From Escherichia phage UE-S1, in sequence record ON568341.1: a stretch of DNA of 64,000 nt. One strand, given 5' to 3'. The notes beneath the pieces are model-generated. The model did no database searches. It saw only the letters and a program-made list of their open reading frames with translations, and was not told where the DNA came from. Both the position numbers and the translations under genes were made by a program. Positions 28-40,360 of the stretch are shown piece by piece (the first letter of the stretch is position 1; each line of letters opens with the position of its first letter).

Positions 28-55
28 TTGACAAACACATTCAGTACTGTATAAT
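28..55 (+). promoter_or_regulatory. sigma70-like promoter
   Basis: TTGACA(28-33), 16 nt spacer, TGTATAAT(48-55); upstream of 103..657. Confidence 0.5.
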
Positions 56-1145: not shown

Positions 1146-1517
1146 ATGAATATAGATTTGAAAGGTGCAACCCGAACTGTTATTCTCATTGGGGAATACG
1201 CTATCAAGATTCCAACTTTCAAAAGCTGGAAGTTATTCTTAACGGGAATGATAGCTAACCTAAATGAACGTTCGTGGATGCAGTACTCCAATCGTAGTGA
1301 CAGTAGTATCTGTCCTACGTTGTGGTCATCATGTACTGGACTAGTAACTGTACAGAAACGTTGTAAGCCAATACATCATAGGGGTTTATTTTGGGTGGAG
1401 TTGTGTGCTTTAGCATTGAATTCAGAGTTAAGTGCTGACTTCTTCTATTCAGATGCGAAGCCAGAAAACTTTGGGTATCTGGGTGGTAAGTTAGTTAAAC
1501 TTGATTATGGAGATTAA
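1146..1517 (+). CDS. protein-kinase-like mini-protein
   Basis: Motifs YAIKIP (VAIK-like), SDAKPENFG (catalytic-loop-like), KLDYGD (DFG-like); too short for a full kinase. Confidence 0.5.
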   Translation: MNIDLKGATRTVILIGEYAIKIPTFKSWKLFLTGMIANLNERSWMQYSNRSDSSICPTLWSSCTGLVTVQKRCKPIHHRGLFWVELCALALNSELSADFFYSDAKPENFGYLGGKLVKLDYGD

Positions 1518-1518
1518 T

Positions 1519-1788
1519 ATGTACGCACTGTATAATAAAGAAAAGAAACAATTTGCTAAGGTTGAAATTTCGATTGATACATTTGATATGTTGGAGTACT
1601 GTATTGTAACGGACCCATATGCTAATTTGTATTACGTTCATGATGACACATCAGTACTGCAACGATTGCTTGAGAGTTCAAAAAGTCAATGTCAGGGAAT
1701 CCATGATGGTTCATCCTATGAAACTCCTGAGTGTTCATATGGCTGTCTGGATGGATATGAGATTGTTAAGTTGGGGATCGTTGAATAA
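1519..1788 (+). CDS. hypothetical protein (89 aa)
   Basis: GGAGA SD 7 nt before ATG 1519; ends just before terminator hairpin. Confidence 0.45.
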   Translation: MYALYNKEKKQFAKVEISIDTFDMLEYCIVTDPYANLYYVHDDTSVLQRLLESSKSQCQGIHDGSSYETPECSYGCLDGYEIVKLGIVE

Positions 1789-1795
1789 AGAAAAG

Positions 1796-1819
1796 GGTTG
1801 ACTTTGGTCAGCCCTTTTT
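1796..1819 (+). terminator. intrinsic terminator hairpin (overlaps promoter -35)
   Basis: GGGTTGAC-tttg-GTCAGCCC stem followed by TTTTT. Confidence 0.55.
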
Positions 1820-1855: not shown

Positions 1856-2371
1856 ATGACACGCATTAACTTAGTACACGTTAAAGAACTTGCAGACCAA
1901 CATCTGATGGCTGAATATCGTGAACTACCACGTGTATTTGGTGCTGTACGAAAACACGTTCACGCACGTAAGCGTGTACGTGATTTCAAAATTAACAGTA
2001 CTTATCTGTTAGGTTCAGGTCATGTGACCTTCTTTTACGACAAGTTGCTGTACTTACAGAAGCGTCATATCGATATTGTCAACGAATGTTTGCGTCGTGG
2101 GATGAAGATTCAAAATACTGAAGTAAACGACATTAGCAGCTTCCCTGCTGAGTTTTGTAATGACTATGTACCATCGGAGTCAGAGATTAAAATGTCTCGT
2201 GATCGTTTGATTGAGAAGCTCCAGATGAAGCCTACGTGGTATAAGTTTACTGACGTTGAACGTCCACAGTACGTTAAAGATATTCAGGACGTAAGTAGTA
2301 ATATAGAATCTAGTACGGATATGTTAGACGAAATTGAAGAACAAATCAAAAATGAAATGAATAATTATTAA
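1856..2371 (+). CDS. denV: pyrimidine-dimer DNA glycosylase / endonuclease V (T4 DenV-like)
   Basis: [52 protein letters not shown] matches T4 endonuclease V as recalled; GAGGA SD. Confidence 0.9.
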
Positions 2372-3139: not shown

Positions 3140-3913
3140 ATGAACCGTACAGAGAAAGCACTCCAAATTGAAAAGAACTTCAACTCCATGATGGCAGCAC
3201 TGGAATGTCTTCTTGATACACAAACTAACTCGATCAACTCGCTGATCGTTTCTGGTAAAGGTGGTGTTGGTAAAACTTACAATGTTGACCAACGGTTACA
3301 GAAAGCTGATGACAACTTTGAAATCGACTACAAGAAAATCAGTGGTAAAGTAACTACTGTAGGTCTGTACGAAGCACTGTATCGTTCACGTCATGCTGCT
3401 TCAGTACTGTTACTTGACGACGTTGATATCTTCTCTGATGAAACGAATATTGATTTGCTTAAAGCTGTATTGGATACTTCTGAGAAGCGTGTAGTGTCTT
3501 ATGCTACATCTGCGAAGTACCTGGAACAGCAGGGTATCCCTAAACAGTTTGAATTCCGTGGTAAAGTAATCTTTCTGACTAACAAAAATCTGTCACAGAT
3601 TGCTAAAGGTAAAAGCAGTTTAGCACCACACATTGATGCACTGATTACTCGTAGTATCTTTGTTGACCTGCAACTGTTCACCAACGAAGAAGTTATGATT
3701 CACATTGAGAATATCATGAACAAAACTAACATCCTTGAGAACAATGGTGTTAACAAAAATGGTTGTAAAGCAATTTTGAACTGGATGTTGAGTAATGAAG
3801 ATCGTCTGCGTTCACCTTCACTGCGTATGCCAGTACTGATCGCTGGACTGTATAATAAATTCCCATATGATTGGGAGTCAATGGCAGAGAATATGTTCCT
3901 TGAGAAAATTTAA
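3140..3913 (+). CDS. P-loop NTPase
   Basis: Walker A SGKGGVGKT, Walker B-like VLLLDDVD; GAGGA SD. Confidence 0.6.
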   Translation: MNRTEKALQIEKNFNSMMAALECLLDTQTNSINSLIVSGKGGVGKTYNVDQRLQKADDNFEIDYKKISGKVTTVGLYEALYRSRHAASVLLLDDVDIFSDETNIDLLKAVLDTSEKRVVSYATSAKYLEQQGIPKQFEFRGKVIFLTNKNLSQIAKGKSSLAPHIDALITRSIFVDLQLFTNEEVMIHIENIMNKTNILENNGVNKNGCKAILNWMLSNEDRLRSPSLRMPVLIAGLYNKFPYDWESMAENMFLEKI

Positions 3914-19386: not shown

Positions 19387-20046
19387 ATGAAACTTAATGC
19401 ACACAGCAAACAATACCTTAAGCACTTTAAGTACCTCAACAGTATTCAAGCAGAATCTTTTACACCAGCATATACGTATCACCCTAATGTACTAAAGAAA
19501 CGAAATAAAAAGAAAAAATCCAGAAATGTTCTCGTATCTAAGAACCTCAAATCGTACTTGAAGAAAAATAATATAGCTCTTGCTTTTATTAATATCTATA
19601 ATACTGATTTAAAAGTATTGAGTACTAATACCAGCACAAAAGCACTAAAGAATGCATCTATCTATATACACATGGATAATATCCCGTGCACTATAATTCT
19701 ATCTTCCGGGAATGTATACTTCTTCGGGAATTGTAATAGCACCCATGATATCAGTACTGCACAATTCCAAATCGGAGATATGTACTGCATGGGTTCAGAA
19801 AAAATACACGATAATATGCACTTCTTCCAAAAGCAACGTACTAACGAAACTGATACAGTACTGCAATTCCTCAAAGAACTAGAACACAAAGAATTATCCG
19901 AGGAAGAAGAATTCATGTACAGTACTGTAATCGATAATCCAGGACTCTATAAAAACGCGTACAAACTAACAAAACATGTACAGGAACTTATCAGTACTGA
20001 TAAGAAAATTCATCACCTCATTACGTATATTTCAAACTATGTATAA
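19387..20046 (+). CDS. hypothetical protein (219 aa)
   Basis: AAGGAAA SD; long ORF inside the small-protein array. Confidence 0.5.
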   Translation: MKLNAHSKQYLKHFKYLNSIQAESFTPAYTYHPNVLKKRNKKKKSRNVLVSKNLKSYLKKNNIALAFINIYNTDLKVLSTNTSTKALKNASIYIHMDNIPCTIILSSGNVYFFGNCNSTHDISTAQFQIGDMYCMGSEKIHDNMHFFQKQRTNETDTVLQFLKELEHKELSEEEEFMYSTVIDNPGLYKNAYKLTKHVQELISTDKKIHHLITYISNYV

Positions 20047-20221
20047 AGAATACTACATAGAGAAACTCCCAATGCATCTACAACACCATATACCAAACGT
20101 TGCATTGGGCATAACCGAGCACGCAAAGATAATGTTCCAACAATGTACTAAGTACACGCTCATATACGATGATAATCCATATATGCTGTACTACGTAGTA
20201 ATGCTAACATTCAGGTACTAA
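20039..20221 (+). CDS. small protein, tandem family
   Basis: MYKEYYIEKLPMHLQ..; C-term YYVVMLTFRY; overlaps previous stop. Confidence 0.5.
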   Translation: MYKEYYIEKLPMHLQHHIPNVALGITEHAKIMFQQCTKYTLIYDDNPYMLYYVVMLTFRY

Positions 20222-20222
20222 T

Positions 20223-20402
20223 ATGAATACTTATAAAGAATTCTACCTCTCGTACCTTAATTCCGATATAGTAACATCCAATACATTCAGTACTAAAATT
20301 ATCTATAATGAAGTAATGAAAGAATGTATTAAAGGTGCTATTAACCCTAAAGATACGTATGACTTGTACTATGCAGTACTAACCCTTGTTTTCACGAAAT
20401 AA
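20223..20402 (+). CDS. small protein (59 aa), tandem family
   Basis: TAATATG junction; MNTYKEFYLSYL..YAVLTLVFTK. Confidence 0.4.
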   Translation: MNTYKEFYLSYLNSDIVTSNTFSTKIIYNEVMKECIKGAINPKDTYDLYYAVLTLVFTK

Positions 20403-20410
20403 CACATAAT

Positions 20411-20602
20411 ATGAATAACCACAAAGAATACTACATAGAGAAACTCCCAATGTATCTCCAACACCTTCTACCAACAGAACCATTGCGTATAGAAAAAAAC
20501 TACGAAAAAGACTACTTCATTCAGTGCACTAAATCCTCGATATATATTGAAGACTATAATCGAGTACTGTATCACATCCTTTTACTAATATATAAGTACT
20601 AA
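20411..20602 (+). CDS. small protein, tandem family
   Basis: MNNHKEYYIEKLPMYLQ..YHILLLIYKY. Confidence 0.55.
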   Translation: MNNHKEYYIEKLPMYLQHLLPTEPLRIEKNYEKDYFIQCTKSSIYIEDYNRVLYHILLLIYKY

Positions 20603-20603
20603 T

Positions 20604-20792
20604 ATGAATAACCACAAAGAATACTACACACAATTTCTCCCCAGCATTTTGGAACAATACGCCAGATATAAAGTCCCCCTCGATAACGATTTGGCAGTAC
20701 TGGGATTCAATAACTGCATAGAACGAAGTATAGAAAATAGTAATAGCTATGAACAATTATATAACACTATCCTACTTATATTCAGGTACTAA
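20604..20792 (+). CDS. small protein, tandem family
   Basis: TAATATG junction; MNNHKEYYTQFL..YNTILLIFRY. Confidence 0.55.
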   Translation: MNNHKEYYTQFLPSILEQYARYKVPLDNDLAVLGFNNCIERSIENSNSYEQLYNTILLIFRY

Positions 20793-34897: not shown

Positions 34898-35057
34898 AAG
34901 AATTCTTATTTGAAGTAGTGTTTCAAGGTGTCGGTAATAACCAACTGATTCGAACAAGTGGTTATAATGTTAACCAGGCATGGAATAACATTAAACAAAT
35001 GTACCCGAACGCTATCACATATCGCAACCCGAAAGAAGTTTAAAAATAATTGAAAAA

Positions 35058-35095
35058 GGGATTGACTCCGGTCAGTCCCTTTGCTATTATATACG
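35058..35095 (+). terminator. terminator hairpin with embedded promoter (composite element)
   Basis: AAAAAGGGATTGACTCCGGTCAGTCCCTTTGCTATTATATA. Confidence 0.55.
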
Positions 35096-35191
35096 CATAG
35101 AAACAAATTAGCCCACCGGGTGCATAAATGTATCTATTGTTTGCTGGTGGCTAGTACTATCAAGTACTGAAAACTATTTTTAAAAAAGTAC

Positions 35192-35219
35192 TTGCAAAGT
35201 ATCACGATAAGCGTATAAT
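35192..35219 (+). promoter_or_regulatory. early promoter (upstream of tandem pair)
   Basis: TTGCAA(35192-35197), 16 nt spacer, TATAAT(35214-35219). Confidence 0.55.
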
Positions 35220-35313
35220 GTTTTACATCAGGACGGGGAACGAAATAAGTAACCCCGTTAAGTAGTCCAGGAGTAAGACATACGAAAAACTCCCCTGATA
35301 AAATAGTTTGACA
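35214..35313. repeat. 100-bp exact repeat (copy 2)
   Basis: Appears identical by eye to 25301..25400. Confidence 0.7.
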
Positions 35314-35335
35314 ATAGAAAGTAAACGAGTATAAT
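35308..35335 (+). promoter_or_regulatory. early promoter (downstream of tandem pair)
   Basis: TTGACA(35308-35313), 16 nt spacer, TATAAT(35330-35335). Confidence 0.5.
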
Positions 35336-35368
35336 ACTTACATCAACCACTGATAAGGAAACATTAAA

Positions 35369-35644
35369 ATGCGGACTTTACTTACAGCTAACGAAATCGA
35401 GCAAGTACTGACTACTAATCTGGAACAATGGAAACGTGAAGCAGATATCCAGGCGGTTCAATGCCTTAACGATAAGTTAACGCCAGATGACTTAAGCACG
35501 ATTGTTGATCCACAATTTTATGAAGATATTCACGACACGTCTTTAAGCGTCGAGGATGTACTTGATAAGCACTACATTGATACTGATTTACATGTTTACG
35601 GTCGTAAAAACTTTATCACTATTCACGACATTTACAATACTTAA
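35369..35644 (+). CDS. hypothetical early protein (91 aa)
   Basis: ORF after dual promoters; AAGGAAA SD. Confidence 0.55.
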   Translation: MRTLLTANEIEQVLTTNLEQWKREADIQAVQCLNDKLTPDDLSTIVDPQFYEDIHDTSLSVEDVLDKHYIDTDLHVYGRKNFITIHDIYNT

Positions 35645-35731
35645 GTATTGACAAAGTATCTTAGTACTGTATAATAGTTTACATCAAGCGAGGGGAATGG
35701 TTCCCCTCCTAACAAAGAGAGAGAAATAAAA

Positions 35732-36055
35732 ATGGCTATGATCCTTACCCAGAAAGTAGAACTGAAAATTGTAACCTCCTTTGACATTAAAGTTAATCGG
35801 TGGACTGATAGCCACGGCAATACTTACCACTCCTGCTACGTGTCCGCATTGATTGGTGATCGCTGGGAAGACCTGGGACACGAAACCTTTACATACGGTT
35901 ACGGCACACAAGGCGAGTACACGGGTTTAGAAATCATTAAGGAAACTGTAATAGGTTTCAACCCGAAAGAGAAAGTACTACACAGAATTGAGAAAGAGAT
36001 CAACAAAGAAATTACAGTTCGCTACTACGATGTAAAACGTAAGAAAGACATGTAA
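35732..36055 (+). CDS. hypothetical early protein (107 aa)
   Basis: AGAGAGAGAAA SD after hairpin; paralog of 29894..30238. Confidence 0.55.
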   Translation: MAMILTQKVELKIVTSFDIKVNRWTDSHGNTYHSCYVSALIGDRWEDLGHETFTYGYGTQGEYTGLEIIKETVIGFNPKEKVLHRIEKEINKEITVRYYDVKRKKDM

Positions 36056-36150
36056 TAGAATCCATTTAAAGTACTATTTGACATTGCCCAGATAGTACTT
36101 TATAATAGACTCTAACTTGTAGTACTAACTCAACTAATAGGATGTATACC

Positions 36151-36546
36151 ATGATTACTAAATTCTACGCTACCCGTGAAGCTGCCCGTATTGTTGCACG
36201 CGAGGAAGGAGCAGCATTTAAAGACATGGGCAAAGATGCAACGAAAGGTCAACGCTGGGCCGTACAGTTCAAAGAAATCTCTGATATTGTGAATTCACCT
36301 GAGCCAGTACTGACAGCAGCAGAACTAAAACGAGCGGATATGCTGGCGGCAATACTTGACGCACAAGATGAGTTTATCGCTGACTCTGATATCAAAGTAC
36401 AGGTAAACCACACCGCATGGACTCACGCGGATCACCTGGCAAACCTTAAGCGTCCAAGTGAACTGATTCGCAACCAGAAAGAGATCCGACATGATCGTAA
36501 GGGTAATCGTGTAACAGTATACAGTAAACGCCGCCAGGTTATCTAA
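36151..36546 (+). CDS. hypothetical early protein (131 aa)
   Basis: ATG 36151 after AGGA; paralog of 24443..24709; followed by hairpin GGCGGGA..TCCCGCC + T-run. Confidence 0.55.
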   Translation: MITKFYATREAARIVAREEGAAFKDMGKDATKGQRWAVQFKEISDIVNSPEPVLTAAELKRADMLAAILDAQDEFIADSDIKVQVNHTAWTHADHLANLKRPSELIRNQKEIRHDRKGNRVTVYSKRRQVI

Positions 36547-36607
36547 TAACTTGCAGTACTAACAACACGGCGGGATCAGTTCCCGCCTTTTTTATAGGAC
36601 AAACAAA

Positions 36608-36862
36608 ATGATTAAGGTTCAACTATATAAAGATAACATCTTACGGGTACACTATAAAGCACCTCAGAGAATCATCACAAAGGCCGTACAGCTTGCTAAT
36701 GAGTTTATTAATGGTAACCTATTACCTAGGAAGTTAAGCAACGGAAAACTGCGTGTAATCGACGTGGACACTAACAACAGGATAGTAATCGAGAACACAG
36801 GAAAAATAAACCTATATGAACACCAACAATACAATAAGAAAATAAAACTAATATCACGTTGA
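36608..36862 (+). CDS. hypothetical early protein (84 aa)
   Basis: ORF with AGGA SD-like. Confidence 0.45.
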   Translation: MIKVQLYKDNILRVHYKAPQRIITKAVQLANEFINGNLLPRKLSNGKLRVIDVDTNNRIVIENTGKINLYEHQQYNKKIKLISR

Positions 36863-36915
36863 CAGTACTCAAATGTTTTAGTATTATGTACACATACCAA
36901 CACGGGAGAAACAAA

Positions 36916-37134
36916 ATGAAATTATCTAAAATCGAAAAGAAAACTATTGATGAAGCAGTTAAGCACGGTTATACCTTTCGTAATGATTCACATTTTACCA
37001 ATTTTCAACAGGGGTATCGTACTATTAAAAAACTAATTGACAAAGGTTTATTAGTTGAAGTCAATAATGGGAACGGTATCGAGTATCAGCCAACCCAAGA
37101 CGCATTATCTTTAAAGAAATATAATATTATCTAA
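36916..37134 (+). CDS. hypothetical early protein (72 aa)
   Basis: ATG 36916 after GGGAGAAA; promoter TTGACA(36860)..TATTAT upstream. Confidence 0.5.
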   Translation: MKLSKIEKKTIDEAVKHGYTFRNDSHFTNFQQGYRTIKKLIDKGLLVEVNNGNGIEYQPTQDALSLKKYNII

Positions 37135-37191
37135 TTGACAGTACTCAAATGTTTTAGTACTATATGTACATACCAACACGGGGGAAACAAA

Positions 37192-37434
37192 ATGATTACT
37201 TTAGAAAAACGTATCAAAGAAACTACATCGCTGGTGGAACTGTTAACAGTACTCAAATGTAAAACAACACCATTTAGCACGCCGGACTTTATTAATATGG
37301 TTGATGTTAATGGTCGCTATCGTATCACGGTCGAACAAGGAGCGGCGAAAGTATTCAGTACTAAAAACACGAAGGAAGTGATCCACGCCGTTAATGTTAA
37401 AAAAGTAGTTGCCATTGATAGTAAAGTACTGTAA
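37192..37434 (+). CDS. hypothetical early protein (80 aa)
   Basis: ATG 37192 after GGGGGAAA; promoter/leader duplicated from 36859-36915. Confidence 0.5.
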   Translation: MITLEKRIKETTSLVELLTVLKCKTTPFSTPDFINMVDVNGRYRITVEQGAAKVFSTKNTKEVIHAVNVKKVVAIDSKVL

Positions 37435-37465
37435 TATAGTTTCATTAACTCAAGGAGAACATGCA

Positions 37466-38050
37466 ATGCGTAATTATACTAAATTCATCCGTACACTGTC
37501 AGAAATGGAAACCAACAAAGAGATCCTTTCAGCTTGTCGGTTAGCTGGCCTGGAGATCATCGGTGCTGGTTCTTCCCGTATAGTTTTCGCTTTAAATGAT
37601 CGGTTAGTGATTAAGGTCGCGAATTGTGATGCGGGTGTAGAACAAAATGAAACTGAATGTAAGGTATGGAATTTTTTAGACTATGACCGCCCTCAGTTGA
37701 AACAGTACTTTGCAAAGGTGCATATGCATTTATGCGATCCTGATAATATGTTTATCGTTATGGATCGGTTGAGTACTGCAAGCAAAGGTAGTGTGAAGCA
37801 CGTAAACGCGTGCAATGAATTAAAGTACAATATTAAACGTAATGCAATCGAACGCCATCACCGCTTTGCTGATGCACTACAACACGTCGATGATACATTA
37901 TCAACACTAACGATAAGAGATATCAGAAAACAGAATATCGGCCAGGATCGTAATGGCCTTATTAAAGTACTTGATTACGGTTTAACCTGCAATATCTGGA
38001 ATCAGTACTATAAAAAGCGTGATGTGGCAGCAAGTAAGGTAACACGATAA
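37466..38050 (+). CDS. protein-kinase-like protein (194 aa)
   Basis: G-loop-like GAGSSRIVF, VIKVA lysine motif, RDIRKQNIG catalytic-loop-like, KVLDYG DFG-like; AAGGAGAA SD. Confidence 0.55.
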   Translation: MRNYTKFIRTLSEMETNKEILSACRLAGLEIIGAGSSRIVFALNDRLVIKVANCDAGVEQNETECKVWNFLDYDRPQLKQYFAKVHMHLCDPDNMFIVMDRLSTASKGSVKHVNACNELKYNIKRNAIERHHRFADALQHVDDTLSTLTIRDIRKQNIGQDRNGLIKVLDYGLTCNIWNQYYKKRDVAASKVTR

Positions 38051-38067
38051 AAAAGATTAAAAAAGGG

Positions 38068-38105
38068 ATTGACTCCGGTCAGTCCCTTTGCTATTATATA
38101 TCCAT
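38068..38105 (+). terminator. terminator hairpin with embedded promoter (composite element)
   Basis: AAAAAAGGGATTGACTCCGGTCAGTCCCTTTGCTATTATATA. Confidence 0.55.
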
Positions 38106-38191
38106 TGAGAGATAACTCACTGACCCATAGGGTGCGGAAGTGTATCTATTATATAAGTATTCAGTACTGAAAACTATTTTTAAAAAAGTAC

Positions 38192-38219
38192 TTGCAAACT
38201 ATCTCAATGAGCGTATAAT
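38192..38219 (+). promoter_or_regulatory. early sigma70-type promoter
   Basis: TTGCAA(38192-38197), 16 nt spacer, TATAAT(38214-38219). Confidence 0.55.
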
Positions 38220-38274
38220 GTTTTATATCGAGAGGGGGAAATGGTTCTCCCTAGTACTAAAAGGAATCAAGACG

Positions 38275-38496
38275 ATGACTACTATGACCTGCGTTCACGC
38301 TTCAAATCTTCTGAATGATGCAGCATTTAAAGCAGGTGAAGAATATCAATGCTATCGGGATGAAAATAAAAAAGTTTTTGTAGTTGATAATAATGGTTTC
38401 CATATTGAATTACAATCCGGCTTCACTGGTTTAAATGGTAAATCAGTATGGGGCGTACAGGATGATAAAGGTACATATCATTTTAAACGTAATTAA
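38275..38496 (+). CDS. hypothetical early protein (73 aa)
   Basis: ATG 38275 after AAAAGGAAT SD and leader hairpin GGGGGAAATGGTTCTCCC. Confidence 0.5.
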   Translation: MTTMTCVHASNLLNDAAFKAGEEYQCYRDENKKVFVVDNNGFHIELQSGFTGLNGKSVWGVQDDKGTYHFKRN

Positions 38497-38577
38497 GTAT
38501 TGACAAAGTATATCAGTACTGTATAATAGTTTACATCAAGGGGAGAATGGTTCTCCCCACTAAAAGGAAACAAAATT

Positions 38578-38850
38578 ATGTCCAGCTACTCCGCTACTAT
38601 GATCATTAAAGATATGAACGGTAATCCTACTTCTGCTGGTGGATCATTTGGAAACATTAATTTAGATGGTCGGTTATCCATGCAATCAGCCATCGATGCA
38701 GCGAAAGAAGTTTTTAAGAATGAATGTACTGTTAGTAAGCTGGATTATATGGGTTTCGCTATCGAGAAAACTACTCGTTTTGTGAACTACAAAAATCCAC
38801 TGATGATTGATACTAACCTGAAAGCTAACGAAGTGGGGTACTTATTATGA
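38578..38850 (+). CDS. hypothetical early protein (90 aa)
   Basis: AAAAGGAAA SD after hairpin; promoter TTGACA..TGTATAAT. Confidence 0.55.
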   Translation: MSSYSATMIIKDMNGNPTSAGGSFGNINLDGRLSMQSAIDAAKEVFKNECTVSKLDYMGFAIEKTTRFVNYKNPLMIDTNLKANEVGYLL

Positions 38851-39038
38851 CAGTAGAAGAAGTAAAAAAAGTACTGGCAGTACTACGATATCATAATCAT
38901 TGCAAGGTGAAGAATGATCCTGATTATCTTGATTCATCCCTGGAGGAAGACACCTTGAACGCTATAAGCCATATGCAGACATTAGCAAAGCGTATGACTG
39001 AAAAGAACATGCCGGACTATATCGGAAATAAAATTTAA
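38847..39038 (+). CDS. hypothetical early protein (63 aa)
   Basis: ATGA overlap with previous gene. Confidence 0.45.
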   Translation: MTVEEVKKVLAVLRYHNHCKVKNDPDYLDSSLEEDTLNAISHMQTLAKRMTEKNMPDYIGNKI

Positions 39039-39124
39039 AAAGTACTTGCATTGTAGTTAGATTAACGTATAATGTTTTATATCGAGAGGGGAAATGGTTT
39101 CCCCTCAAGTCCAGGAGATACACC

Positions 39125-39388
39125 ATGAACACTATCGAAATCACTATCAATGCACACGTATACGACAACGTAGTACTGCAAACTACTATGACCGCCAATG
39201 ATACCAGTACTTTGCGGAATACTGTTATTAGTGCTGTATGTGCCGCTATCGGTGATGTATCCCTGGAAAATTCAGAACACATCAACAACGGTTTCACTAT
39301 GTGCAAACGTGATAACGCAAAACATATCATCGTGGAAGGTTACGGCGGTGTAGAATTTAATGTTTATATGAAAAAAGTACTTGCATAA
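39125..39388 (+). CDS. hypothetical early protein (87 aa)
   Basis: CAGGAGA SD after hairpin GGGGAAATGGTTTCCCC. Confidence 0.5.
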   Translation: MNTIEITINAHVYDNVVLQTTMTANDTSTLRNTVISAVCAAIGDVSLENSEHINNGFTMCKRDNAKHIIVEGYGGVEFNVYMKKVLA

Positions 39389-39455
39389 TAACTAAAACAA
39401 AGTATAATGTTTTGCATAGGGGGAGATATCCTCCCCCACTAAAAGGAGTAATAAA

Positions 39456-39680
39456 ATGGCTAACTTTGATGAACTGATGCGGGAAGTAGCTTACCTGGCA
39501 GAAGAGAAGAAATCATTCGATTCTATCTATAACACCGCTCACCGTGATTCAGTACTGGCATGTAACCAGGATCAAAAAGATGAACTAATCGCCACCTATC
39601 ATGAAGCATGGAAGTACTACCGACAATGGGAGAAAGAAGAAAGTGAGTCTACCATTGACGGCCTCAATAATCTAATCTAA
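39456..39680 (+). CDS. hypothetical early protein (74 aa)
   Basis: AAAAGGAG SD after hairpin GGGGGAGATATCCTCCCCC. Confidence 0.5.
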   Translation: MANFDELMREVAYLAEEKKSFDSIYNTAHRDSVLACNQDQKDELIATYHEAWKYYRQWEKEESESTIDGLNNLI

Positions 39681-40305: not shown

Positions 40306-40322
40306 CAAAAAAGAATAAAAAA

Positions 40323-40360
40323 AGGGATTGACTCCGGTCAGTCCCTTTGCTATTATATAC
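40323..40360 (+). terminator. terminator hairpin with embedded promoter (composite element)
   Basis: AAAAAAAGGGATTGACTCCGGTCAGTCCCTTTGCTATTATATA. Confidence 0.55.

Follow-up and report, generated by a model that had tools for sequence, protein, structure and literature searches.

The 64,000-nt stretch of Escherichia phage UE-S1 DNA analyzed here (ON568341.1; called the window below) carries two short open reading frames (ORFs) on the + strand whose products have the core motifs of the protein kinase fold and end at or shortly after the DFG-equivalent motif. ORF1 (1146..1517, +) opens with ATG and encodes a 123-aa mini kinase-fold protein that runs from the N-lobe through helix alphaE, the catalytic loop and D-Y-G to the stop. 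ORF2 (37466..38050, +) encodes a 194-aa compact kinase-fold protein with an N-terminal extension of two helices, a kinase core and a 22-aa tail past D-Y-G. The window is ~94–96% identical to the Asteriusvirus jumbo coliphages 121Q, G17, PBECO4, Sharanji and ph0011. The orthologues of ORF1 (121Q gp215, Sharanji gp134/WNN14422.1 and G17_00098) are labelled "hypothetical" in every case. Those of ORF2 (Sharanji gp063/WNN14351.1, ph0011 WAE76904.1 and 121Q gp308) are mostly "hypothetical" too, with "protein kinase" in several automated annotations and one sentence in the Sharanji paper, "another protein kinase ... function unknown" (PMC11895373). The mechanical ORF of ORF2 opens at TTG 37409; its true start is ATG 37466, from which the 194 aa are counted, because an AAGGAG Shine-Dalgarno sequence lies upstream, 12 of 12 homologues begin at the same Met and an identical 585-nt coding sequence is annotated in ph0011. 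The ratio of nonsynonymous to synonymous substitution rates (dN/dS) against 121Q, Sharanji and ph0011 is 0.04–0.19 for the two genes (ORF1 alone 0.06–0.19), and the lengths of the proteins are maintained down to 41–44% identity. Both are real genes under strong purifying selection.

The motifs are spread over the whole of each core, all on the + strand. In ORF1, the glycine-loop equivalent K6-G7-A-T9-R10-T-V12 (1161..1181) is followed by A19-I-K21 with the beta3 ATP-anchoring Lys (1200..1208), by E41 of helix alphaC within the family motif N38-x-x-E41 (1266..1268), by the Ser/Thr-kinase-type catalytic loop D103-A-K105-P-E-N108-F-G110 (1452..1475) and by L119-D120-Y-G122-D123 with the TAA stop (1500..1517), which is at once the DFG equivalent, with its Mg-binding Asp, and the C-terminus of the protein. 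The corresponding elements of ORF2 are the glycine loop G33-A-G35-S-S-R38-I-V-F41 (37562..37588), V48-I-K50-V51 with the beta3 Lys (37607..37618), the alphaC Glu E64 in the motif N61-x-x-E64 (37655..37657), the catalytic loop R151-D152-I-R-K155-Q-N157-I-G159 (37916..37942) and the DFG equivalent L169-D170-Y-G172 (37970..37981); K50, E64 and D170 are invariant. The D-x-K-x-x-N residues (D103/K105/N108 in ORF1, D152/K155/N157 in ORF2) align with DLKPAN of TTK and DVKPSN of MKK7, and D120 and D170 both align with the DFG of TTK and MKK. The beta3 Lys/alphaC Glu pair is present in both proteins (K21/E41 and K50/E64), and in the ORF1 model described below K21 lies in strand 18–23 and E41 in helix 28–43. 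Successive gaps between the landmarks are 20, 62 and 17 residues in ORF1 (K21-E41-D103-D120) and 14, 88 and 18 in ORF2 (K50-E64-D152-D170). The same landmarks in protein kinase A (K72-E91-D166-D184) are separated by 19, 75 and 18, and by this measure the spacing in both phage proteins agrees with the canonical kinase core. A first reading made from the letters alone, referred to here as the sequence-only reading, had listed these motifs as glycine loop, subdomain II Lys, catalytic loop and DFG in the order and spacing of kinases; both ORFs exist, every motif is at the position given and the assignment is borne out.

A deep profile search returned 1,213 ORF1-type representatives of 50%-identity clusters, 632 of them at E<=1e-10, and 160 were inspected. 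G7, R10, K21, E41 and D120 do not vary across the 135 members compared, which are 28–54% identical to ORF1. The catalytic-loop acid is D/E in 154 of 156, the Lys two positions after it (the +2 Lys) is present in 137 of 157 and the Mg-ligand position is N/S in 154. The ORF2 family retains G33, G35, K50, E64, D152, (N157), D170 and G172. As judged from these alignments the motif match to kinases is far beyond chance, because both proteins match the phage protein family phrog_4301, the motif residues are invariant alignment columns and the ORF1 family reaches 1,213 cluster representatives. No conserved Arg precedes the catalytic Asp in the ORF1-type or the ORF2 family, which is sensible for a kinase that lacks a phosphorylatable activation loop.

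This conservation bears on the possibility that the proteins are non-catalytic pseudokinases which act by binding, as an ATP-binding switch, scaffold, decoy or nucleotide sponge. The extreme reduction of the fold speaks for it, since a catalytic spine cannot normally assemble once alphaF is lost, and small phage proteins often work by binding or sequestration. Pseudokinases, however, are typically missing one or more of three residues, namely the Lys, the catalytic Asp and the DFG Asp, whereas here K21, E41 and D120 are invariant and the loop acid, Lys and Asn/Ser near-invariant across 135–160 members at ~30–50% identity, and the same holds in the ORF2 family. Conservation of every catalytic residue thus argues against a decoy as far as sequence can tell, and we consider the pseudokinase explanation improbable.

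The phrog_4301 matches are strong for both proteins, with E 2.5e-43 for ORF1 (profile positions 40–167 of 225) and E 1.9e-41 for ORF2 (positions 13–185). Pairwise BLAST between ORF1 and ORF2 aligns the catalytic-loop/DFG stretch only and their shallow profiles align weakly (E 0.0027); with the 135-member ORF1 profile, hhalign against the ORF2 family gives a probability of 95.7% and E 8.6e-9 over 122 columns, in register from the glycine loop to DYG. Features that the two share in addition to the generic kinase motifs are a glycine loop of the form G-x-[ST]-R-x-V, an alphaC with N-x-x-E, and D-Y-G. These profile comparisons place ORF1 and ORF2 as paralogues in one phage-specific family, phrog_4301. 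This PHROG bears no functional annotation, and its assignment to the kinase fold and its split into ~120-aa and ~195-aa forms are new here. No further paralogues of ORF1 or ORF2 were found within the window.

The fold search was made with the AlphaFold2 model of ORF1 only, built from a shallow 15-sequence alignment and confident by its scores (predicted local distance difference test, pLDDT, 90.2; predicted template modelling score, pTM, 0.80). Its N-lobe comprises strands 2–4, 10–15 and 18–23 (with K21), a helix at 28–43 (with E41) and strands 58–61 and 68–71, and the part of the C-lobe that is present comprises the alphaE helix at 79–92, the loop 103–108 and strands 109–112 and 115–118, then D120-Y-G and the C-terminus. 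This is the protein kinase-like (PKL) fold's architecture, an antiparallel beta-sheet N-lobe with alphaC followed by alphaE, catalytic loop, beta7-beta8 and Mg-binding loop. As modelled, ORF1 is a kinase N-lobe plus just the catalytic-core portion of the C-lobe. The top Foldseek matches in the PDB are all kinases (TTK/MPS1, Legionella Lpg2603 and WbdD; probability ~1.0, query template modelling score 0.5–0.63, E ~1e-3), and the smallest solved kinase-fold chains matched (OspG, 169 aa; Ark1, 173 aa) exceed ORF1 in length by ~50 residues. The closest structures in BFVD are small uncharacterised phage proteins of 117–210 aa, two of them from Pectobacterium phage CBB and another, from RaK2 and 194 aa long, very likely the ORF2 homologue gp179. 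The ORF2 model was poor (pLDDT 55, reliable for residues 1–70 only) and was left out of fold searching.

Profile searches point the same way, with weak sequence ties to canonical kinases and more readily for ORF2 than for ORF1. In the PDB, the ORF2 family profile matches MKK4/7, DYRK1A and PKC, among others, with the alignment in register from the glycine loop to DFG (best E 1.5e-4). Against Pfam Pkinase, ORF2 scores 17.4 bits (E 0.003), below the cut-off of 31.7 bits, and in PADLOC it is weakly similar to the PD-T4-6 kinase (E 0.002). ORF1 has no match in Pfam, its shallow profile found nothing among PDB sequences and its deep profile found TTK only, weakly (E 0.02–0.08), with vDaKPeNFG...iDYG aligned to SDLKPANF...IDFG. 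The 135 family members gave just three isolated sub-threshold matches to kinase-type models, and NCBIfam gave no matches. Fold and profile searching, which the sequence-only reading had proposed as its check, thus returned kinases for both proteins and supports the kinase-fold reading of each.

The nature of these matches also bears on the substrate. ORF1 and ORF2 could phosphorylate a small molecule, nucleotide or nucleic acid (a metabolite, a signalling nucleotide or an RNA/DNA hydroxyl), like aminoglycoside phosphotransferase (APH), choline-kinase-type enzymes or the archaeal Ark1 RNA kinases. Kinases of the APH and choline type have H-x-D-x-x-x-x-N without a +2 Lys. In the phage family, the catalytic loop is of the Ser/Thr protein-kinase type, D-x-K-P-x-N, with the +2 Lys in 137 of 157. 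In such enzymes the substrate is also held by helical subdomains at the C-terminus, and ORF1 and ORF2 lack these, so that neither half of the APH/choline-type signature was found in them, and the matches at the sequence level are to protein kinases only (TTK, MKK4/7 and DYRK1A). We therefore think a substrate of this kind quite unlikely.

ORF1 stops one residue past DYG and ORF2 22 residues past it, and an activation segment, APE and alphaF-alphaI (subdomains VIII-XI) are absent from both proteins and from both families. That the two are far shorter than canonical kinases, and that the first ends right at its DFG-like motif, had been recognized in the sequence-only reading and holds to within one residue. 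The idea offered there, that a frameshift might join 1146–1517 to 1519–1788, did not hold. The stop of ORF1 (1515–1517) is followed by 1 nt and then by the ATG of an 89-aa gene in the +1 frame (1519..1788, +; 121Q gp216), which is a separate gene and not a kinase C-terminus. Its product is a full-length member of phrog_8563 (profile positions 2–97 of 97). GGAG at 1509–1512, within the last codons of ORF1, is the Shine-Dalgarno sequence of this gene, which is probably translationally coupled to ORF1.

The position of the stop and the close spacing of the next ORF are what would be expected if ORF1 were the remnant or recoded 5′ half of a longer kinase, or were joined to 1519–1788 by frameshifting. 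Against this, a length of ~120 aa with a stop just past D-x-G is kept by 21 of 22 loci and by the majority of the 160 representatives; the median length among those 160 is 123 aa, and the C-terminus falls 0–1 residue past the last D-x-G in 106 of ~140 (~75%). Further counterevidence comes from the low dN/dS of ORF1, from the downstream ORF being a complete member of a different family, from genes downstream that differ from lineage to lineage and from ORF2 and the T7K-type proteins (discussed below), which likewise terminate 19–24 residues past the DFG-equivalent motif. The frameshift or remnant explanation is effectively refuted, and we give it almost no weight.

Whether a second polypeptide could supply the missing lobe was addressed with the upstream and downstream ORFs of 22 loci from different phages, clustered by BLASTP. 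Neighbors were common only to closely related genomes and the downstream proteins were mutually unrelated, and a split kinase with a conserved neighbor was rejected. A prophage copy of the gene has no close downstream gene at all. The truncation is native and the ORF1-type gene autonomous, because the downstream gene is a complete phrog_8563 member, neighbors recur only among close relatives and the proteins encoded downstream are not related to each other. A partner could also be encoded elsewhere. By itself the mini-core would then lack activity or stability and would become a kinase only once a host or phage protein docks where alphaF-alphaI normally sit, much as the minimal effector kinase OspG is activated by binding of E2~ubiquitin, and the docked protein would double as target or specificity factor. 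This obligate-partner model has to contend with the lack of any neighbor conserved across phage lineages, with mutually unrelated downstream proteins and with the solitary prophage gene. It must also account for the outer face of alphaE, which is charged and variable family-wide rather than a conserved hydrophobic interface. The helix is amphipathic throughout the family, with hydrophobic residues at 84, 86, 89 and 90 and a dominance of E/D/K at 85, 87, 88, 91 and 92, in a part of the alignment that is gappy; this pattern suggests that the face usually buried under alphaF/alphaH has been resurfaced for solubility. We judge an obligate partner unlikely, while giving it real weight.

The two forms differ in their distribution. 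Among isolated phages, members of the ORF2 family (191–212 aa) occur only in the Rak2-like jumbo clade (Asteriusvirus, RaK2/K64-1, CBB, fHe-Yen9-04, XbC2 and others). The ORF1 family is far larger, with members on viral contigs of 22–348 kb, one beside the terminase in a phage with an SU10-type portal, and others in Salmonella lambdoid prophages, where the gene sits by itself between Rz and Nu1. Genome-contig scans of GTDB representative genomes found no relatives, and the longer ORF1-family members gave no Pfam matches to fused domains. One 1,073-aa protein (P0049) built of tandem ~66-aa repeats reaches E 7e-27 to the ORF1 profile through 16 weak partial matches (profile positions 45–100) and has no kinase motifs; the match is probably spurious and repeat-driven. 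At two distant ORF2-family loci, L008 (3745–3996) and L009 (3654–3905), a small ParE_like gene (PF24732) lies directly upstream of the kinase with a 4-nt gap, and at a third, L010 (2351–2599), such a gene lies a few genes upstream. The 80-aa gene upstream of ORF2 in the window (37192–37434) has no PHROG match.

The expression signals described here for the two genes come from consensus scans and are consensus matches only. A perfect sigma70 consensus promoter, TTGACA-16-TATAAT (28..55, +), heads a predicted five-gene unit (103–1788) in which ORF1 is the fourth gene, and a terminator-like hairpin that carries the -35 box of the next promoter (1790..1819, +) closes it. Directly upstream of ORF2 is a weaker predicted promoter, TTGCCA-17-TAATAT (9/12; 37409..37437, +), and a terminator-like hairpin (38062..38089, +) begins 12 nt past its stop, so that ORF2 looks monocistronic. 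In Sharanji the ORF2 orthologue (20026–20610) lies inside the 20,668-bp direct terminal repeat, and in records that include both repeats (vB_Ec-M-J and fENko-Kae01) it is annotated under the terminal repeats and present twice. Because it sits inside a long direct terminal repeat, the ORF2 orthologue would be diploid in virion DNA and near the genome end. The sigma70-type promoters and the terminal-repeat position of ORF2 are compatible with early expression. The ORF1-type family at large is not tied to early takeover, because its prophage copies lie in the late region without an evident promoter of their own. The prophage copy was also considered as a moron, a possibility that was rejected as no convincing own promoter was found.

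Taking these lines together, we lean toward the view that ORF1 and ORF2 are stand-alone, active minimal phosphotransferases that are made early and modify host or phage proteins. Mg-ATP would be bound via the glycine loop, the Lys-Glu pair and the Asp of DYG, and phosphate would be transferred by the D-x-K-x-x-N catalytic loop, whose +2 Lys suggests chemistry of the Ser/Thr or dual-specificity protein kinase type. Constitutive activity would be expected because there is neither an activation loop nor a conserved Arg-Asp (RD) Arg, and low intrinsic substrate selectivity because there is no peptide-binding or substrate-docking lobe. The proteins would probably be synthesized early in the jumbo phage, given host-type sigma70 promoters and the place of ORF2 in the terminal repeat of relatives, and would then modify host or phage proteins. 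An analogy is T7 gp0.7, whose experimentally active, hyperpromiscuous kinase domain also ends ~20–30 residues past its DFG equivalent. More tentatively, the ORF1 type could be a self-sufficient active kinase and the smallest kinase-fold enzyme known, serving as a constitutive low-specificity modifier of host proteins across jumbo phages, podo-like phages and lambdoid prophages, for example by disarming defense as the T7 kinase does. In a variant of that possibility, the ORF1-type protein would dock on its target and the substrate would be the missing half of the enzyme.

The kinase of T7 gp0.7 (T7K) was characterized in a 2026 Nature paper, which found its purified kinase domain to be active and hyperpromiscuous, phosphorylating Ser, Thr and Tyr without motif preference and disarming defense systems, and which also reported that jumbo phages, G17 among them, have distant T7K homologues (PMC13645617). 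We considered whether ORF1 or ORF2 is this published G17 homologue and rejected it, as that protein is the product of a separate, third gene. This third compact kinase of the lineage (Sharanji gp144/WNN14432.1, 224 aa; phrog_15752 E 1e-97, phrog_2828 E 7e-16) ends 19 residues past its DPL motif, and its gene lies outside the window, ~3.5 kb upstream of position 1 (Sharanji OR545507.1 66182–66856; L035 2883–3557, - strand). No T7K-like sequence occurs within the window. Membership of the T7K family has been defined as E<=1e-10 to the kinase part of PHROG 2828, and ORF1 and ORF2 match neither PHROG 2828 nor 15752 even at E<=1, with the gp144 values above and T7K itself (1.6e-169) as positive controls. 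In hhalign comparisons with the T7K family, whose alignment is shallow (at least 68% identity), the ORF2 family reaches E 0.0012 and a probability of 20% with 139 columns in register, and the ORF1 family gives a null result (E 0.35–0.43). By PHROG membership, ORF1/ORF2 and T7K are different families.

Both T7K and ORF1/ORF2 are phage-encoded compact kinase folds with a glycine loop, a VIK Lys, a D-x-x-x-x-N loop and a DFG-equivalent Asp; in the T7K type the kinase domain stops ~19–30 residues past that Asp (T7K DPV 213–215; gp144 DPL) without the canonical alphaF-alphaI lobe, and T7K is transcribed early from host promoters. In contrast, ORF1, ORF2 and their families have DYG where T7K has DPV and gp144 has DPL, their catalytic loop has a Lys of the eukaryotic protein kinase type, they have no shutoff domain, and ORF1 is ~100 residues shorter. 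For the minimal effector kinases OspG of Shigella and NleH of EPEC, neither a sequence relationship nor a closest-structure relationship to OspG was found. RIO1/RIO2, Bud32 and the archaeal Ark1/TkArkI have catalytic loops without a +2 Lys. At 173–290 aa they keep helices past the DFG-like motif, they serve cellular housekeeping (ribosome and tRNA biogenesis), and no sequence match between them and ORF1 or ORF2 was found. The eukaryotic-type (Hanks) Ser/Thr and dual-specificity kinases such as TTK/MPS1 and MKK4/7 give the best sequence and Foldseek matches, with D-[LA]-K-P-x-N-F and I-D-[FY]-G in register and the same beta3 Lys/alphaC Glu pair at the same spacing. They differ in having a canonical domain of ~250–300 aa with activation segment, APE and alphaF-alphaI, and the glycine-loop Arg together with the alphaC N-x-x-E is a signature of the ORF1/ORF2 family.

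ORF2 is a new member of a loosely recognized kind, annotated automatically and mentioned once in the literature. The ~120-aa ORF1-type family was not found in Pfam, NCBIfam, PADLOC, PHROG annotations or the literature, and appears to be undescribed. The protein kinase fold is one of the most thoroughly studied among enzymes, and stability and activity of a kinase are held to require an alphaF-anchored C-lobe. Here, ~1,200 sequence clusters, invisible to Pfam and NCBIfam, retain the catalytic residues within ~120 residues that end at the DFG motif. If active, the ORF1 type would be the minimal catalytic unit of the kinase fold, with an N-lobe and the catalytic and Mg loops enough without the alphaF-anchored C-lobe, and would be useful for kinase evolution and protein engineering. 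Activity would also widen the picture drawn from T7 gp0.7, of stripped-down promiscuous phage kinases set against host defenses, and would give one jumbo-phage lineage three such enzymes (224, 194 and 123 aa), raising the question of a division of labor. If inactive, the family would add ATP-binding mini-domains of a new class. In both cases a structure can now be assigned to many phage proteins listed as "hypothetical".

All neighboring genes belong to PHROGs of unknown function. Immediately after the ORF1 unit, 1856–2371 (+) encodes a homologue of T4 endonuclease V (pyrimidine-dimer DNA glycosylase, denV), so annotated in relatives, and 3140–3913 (+) encodes a 257-aa protein of phrog_1250 (function unknown) with a Walker-A-like GKGGVGKT. 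The region at ~35000–39500 (+) has repeated sigma70-type promoter cassettes before many small genes, such as AAAAAGTACTTGCAAA...TATAAT and TTGACAAAGTAT...TATAAT, which fits a promoter-dense early region within or beside the terminal repeat, and a 71-nt promoter/leader/start region is duplicated at 36849–36919 and 37125–37195. The hairpin AAGGGATTGACTCCGGTCAGTCCCTT, a terminator-like stem, occurs in four copies (1792–1817, 35056–35081, 38063–38088 and 40322–40347, +) against 0 expected in shuffles. Within it is a TTGACT -35 box, with TATTAT/TATAAT ~17 nt further on, and the element may act between transcription units as terminator and promoter in one cassette.

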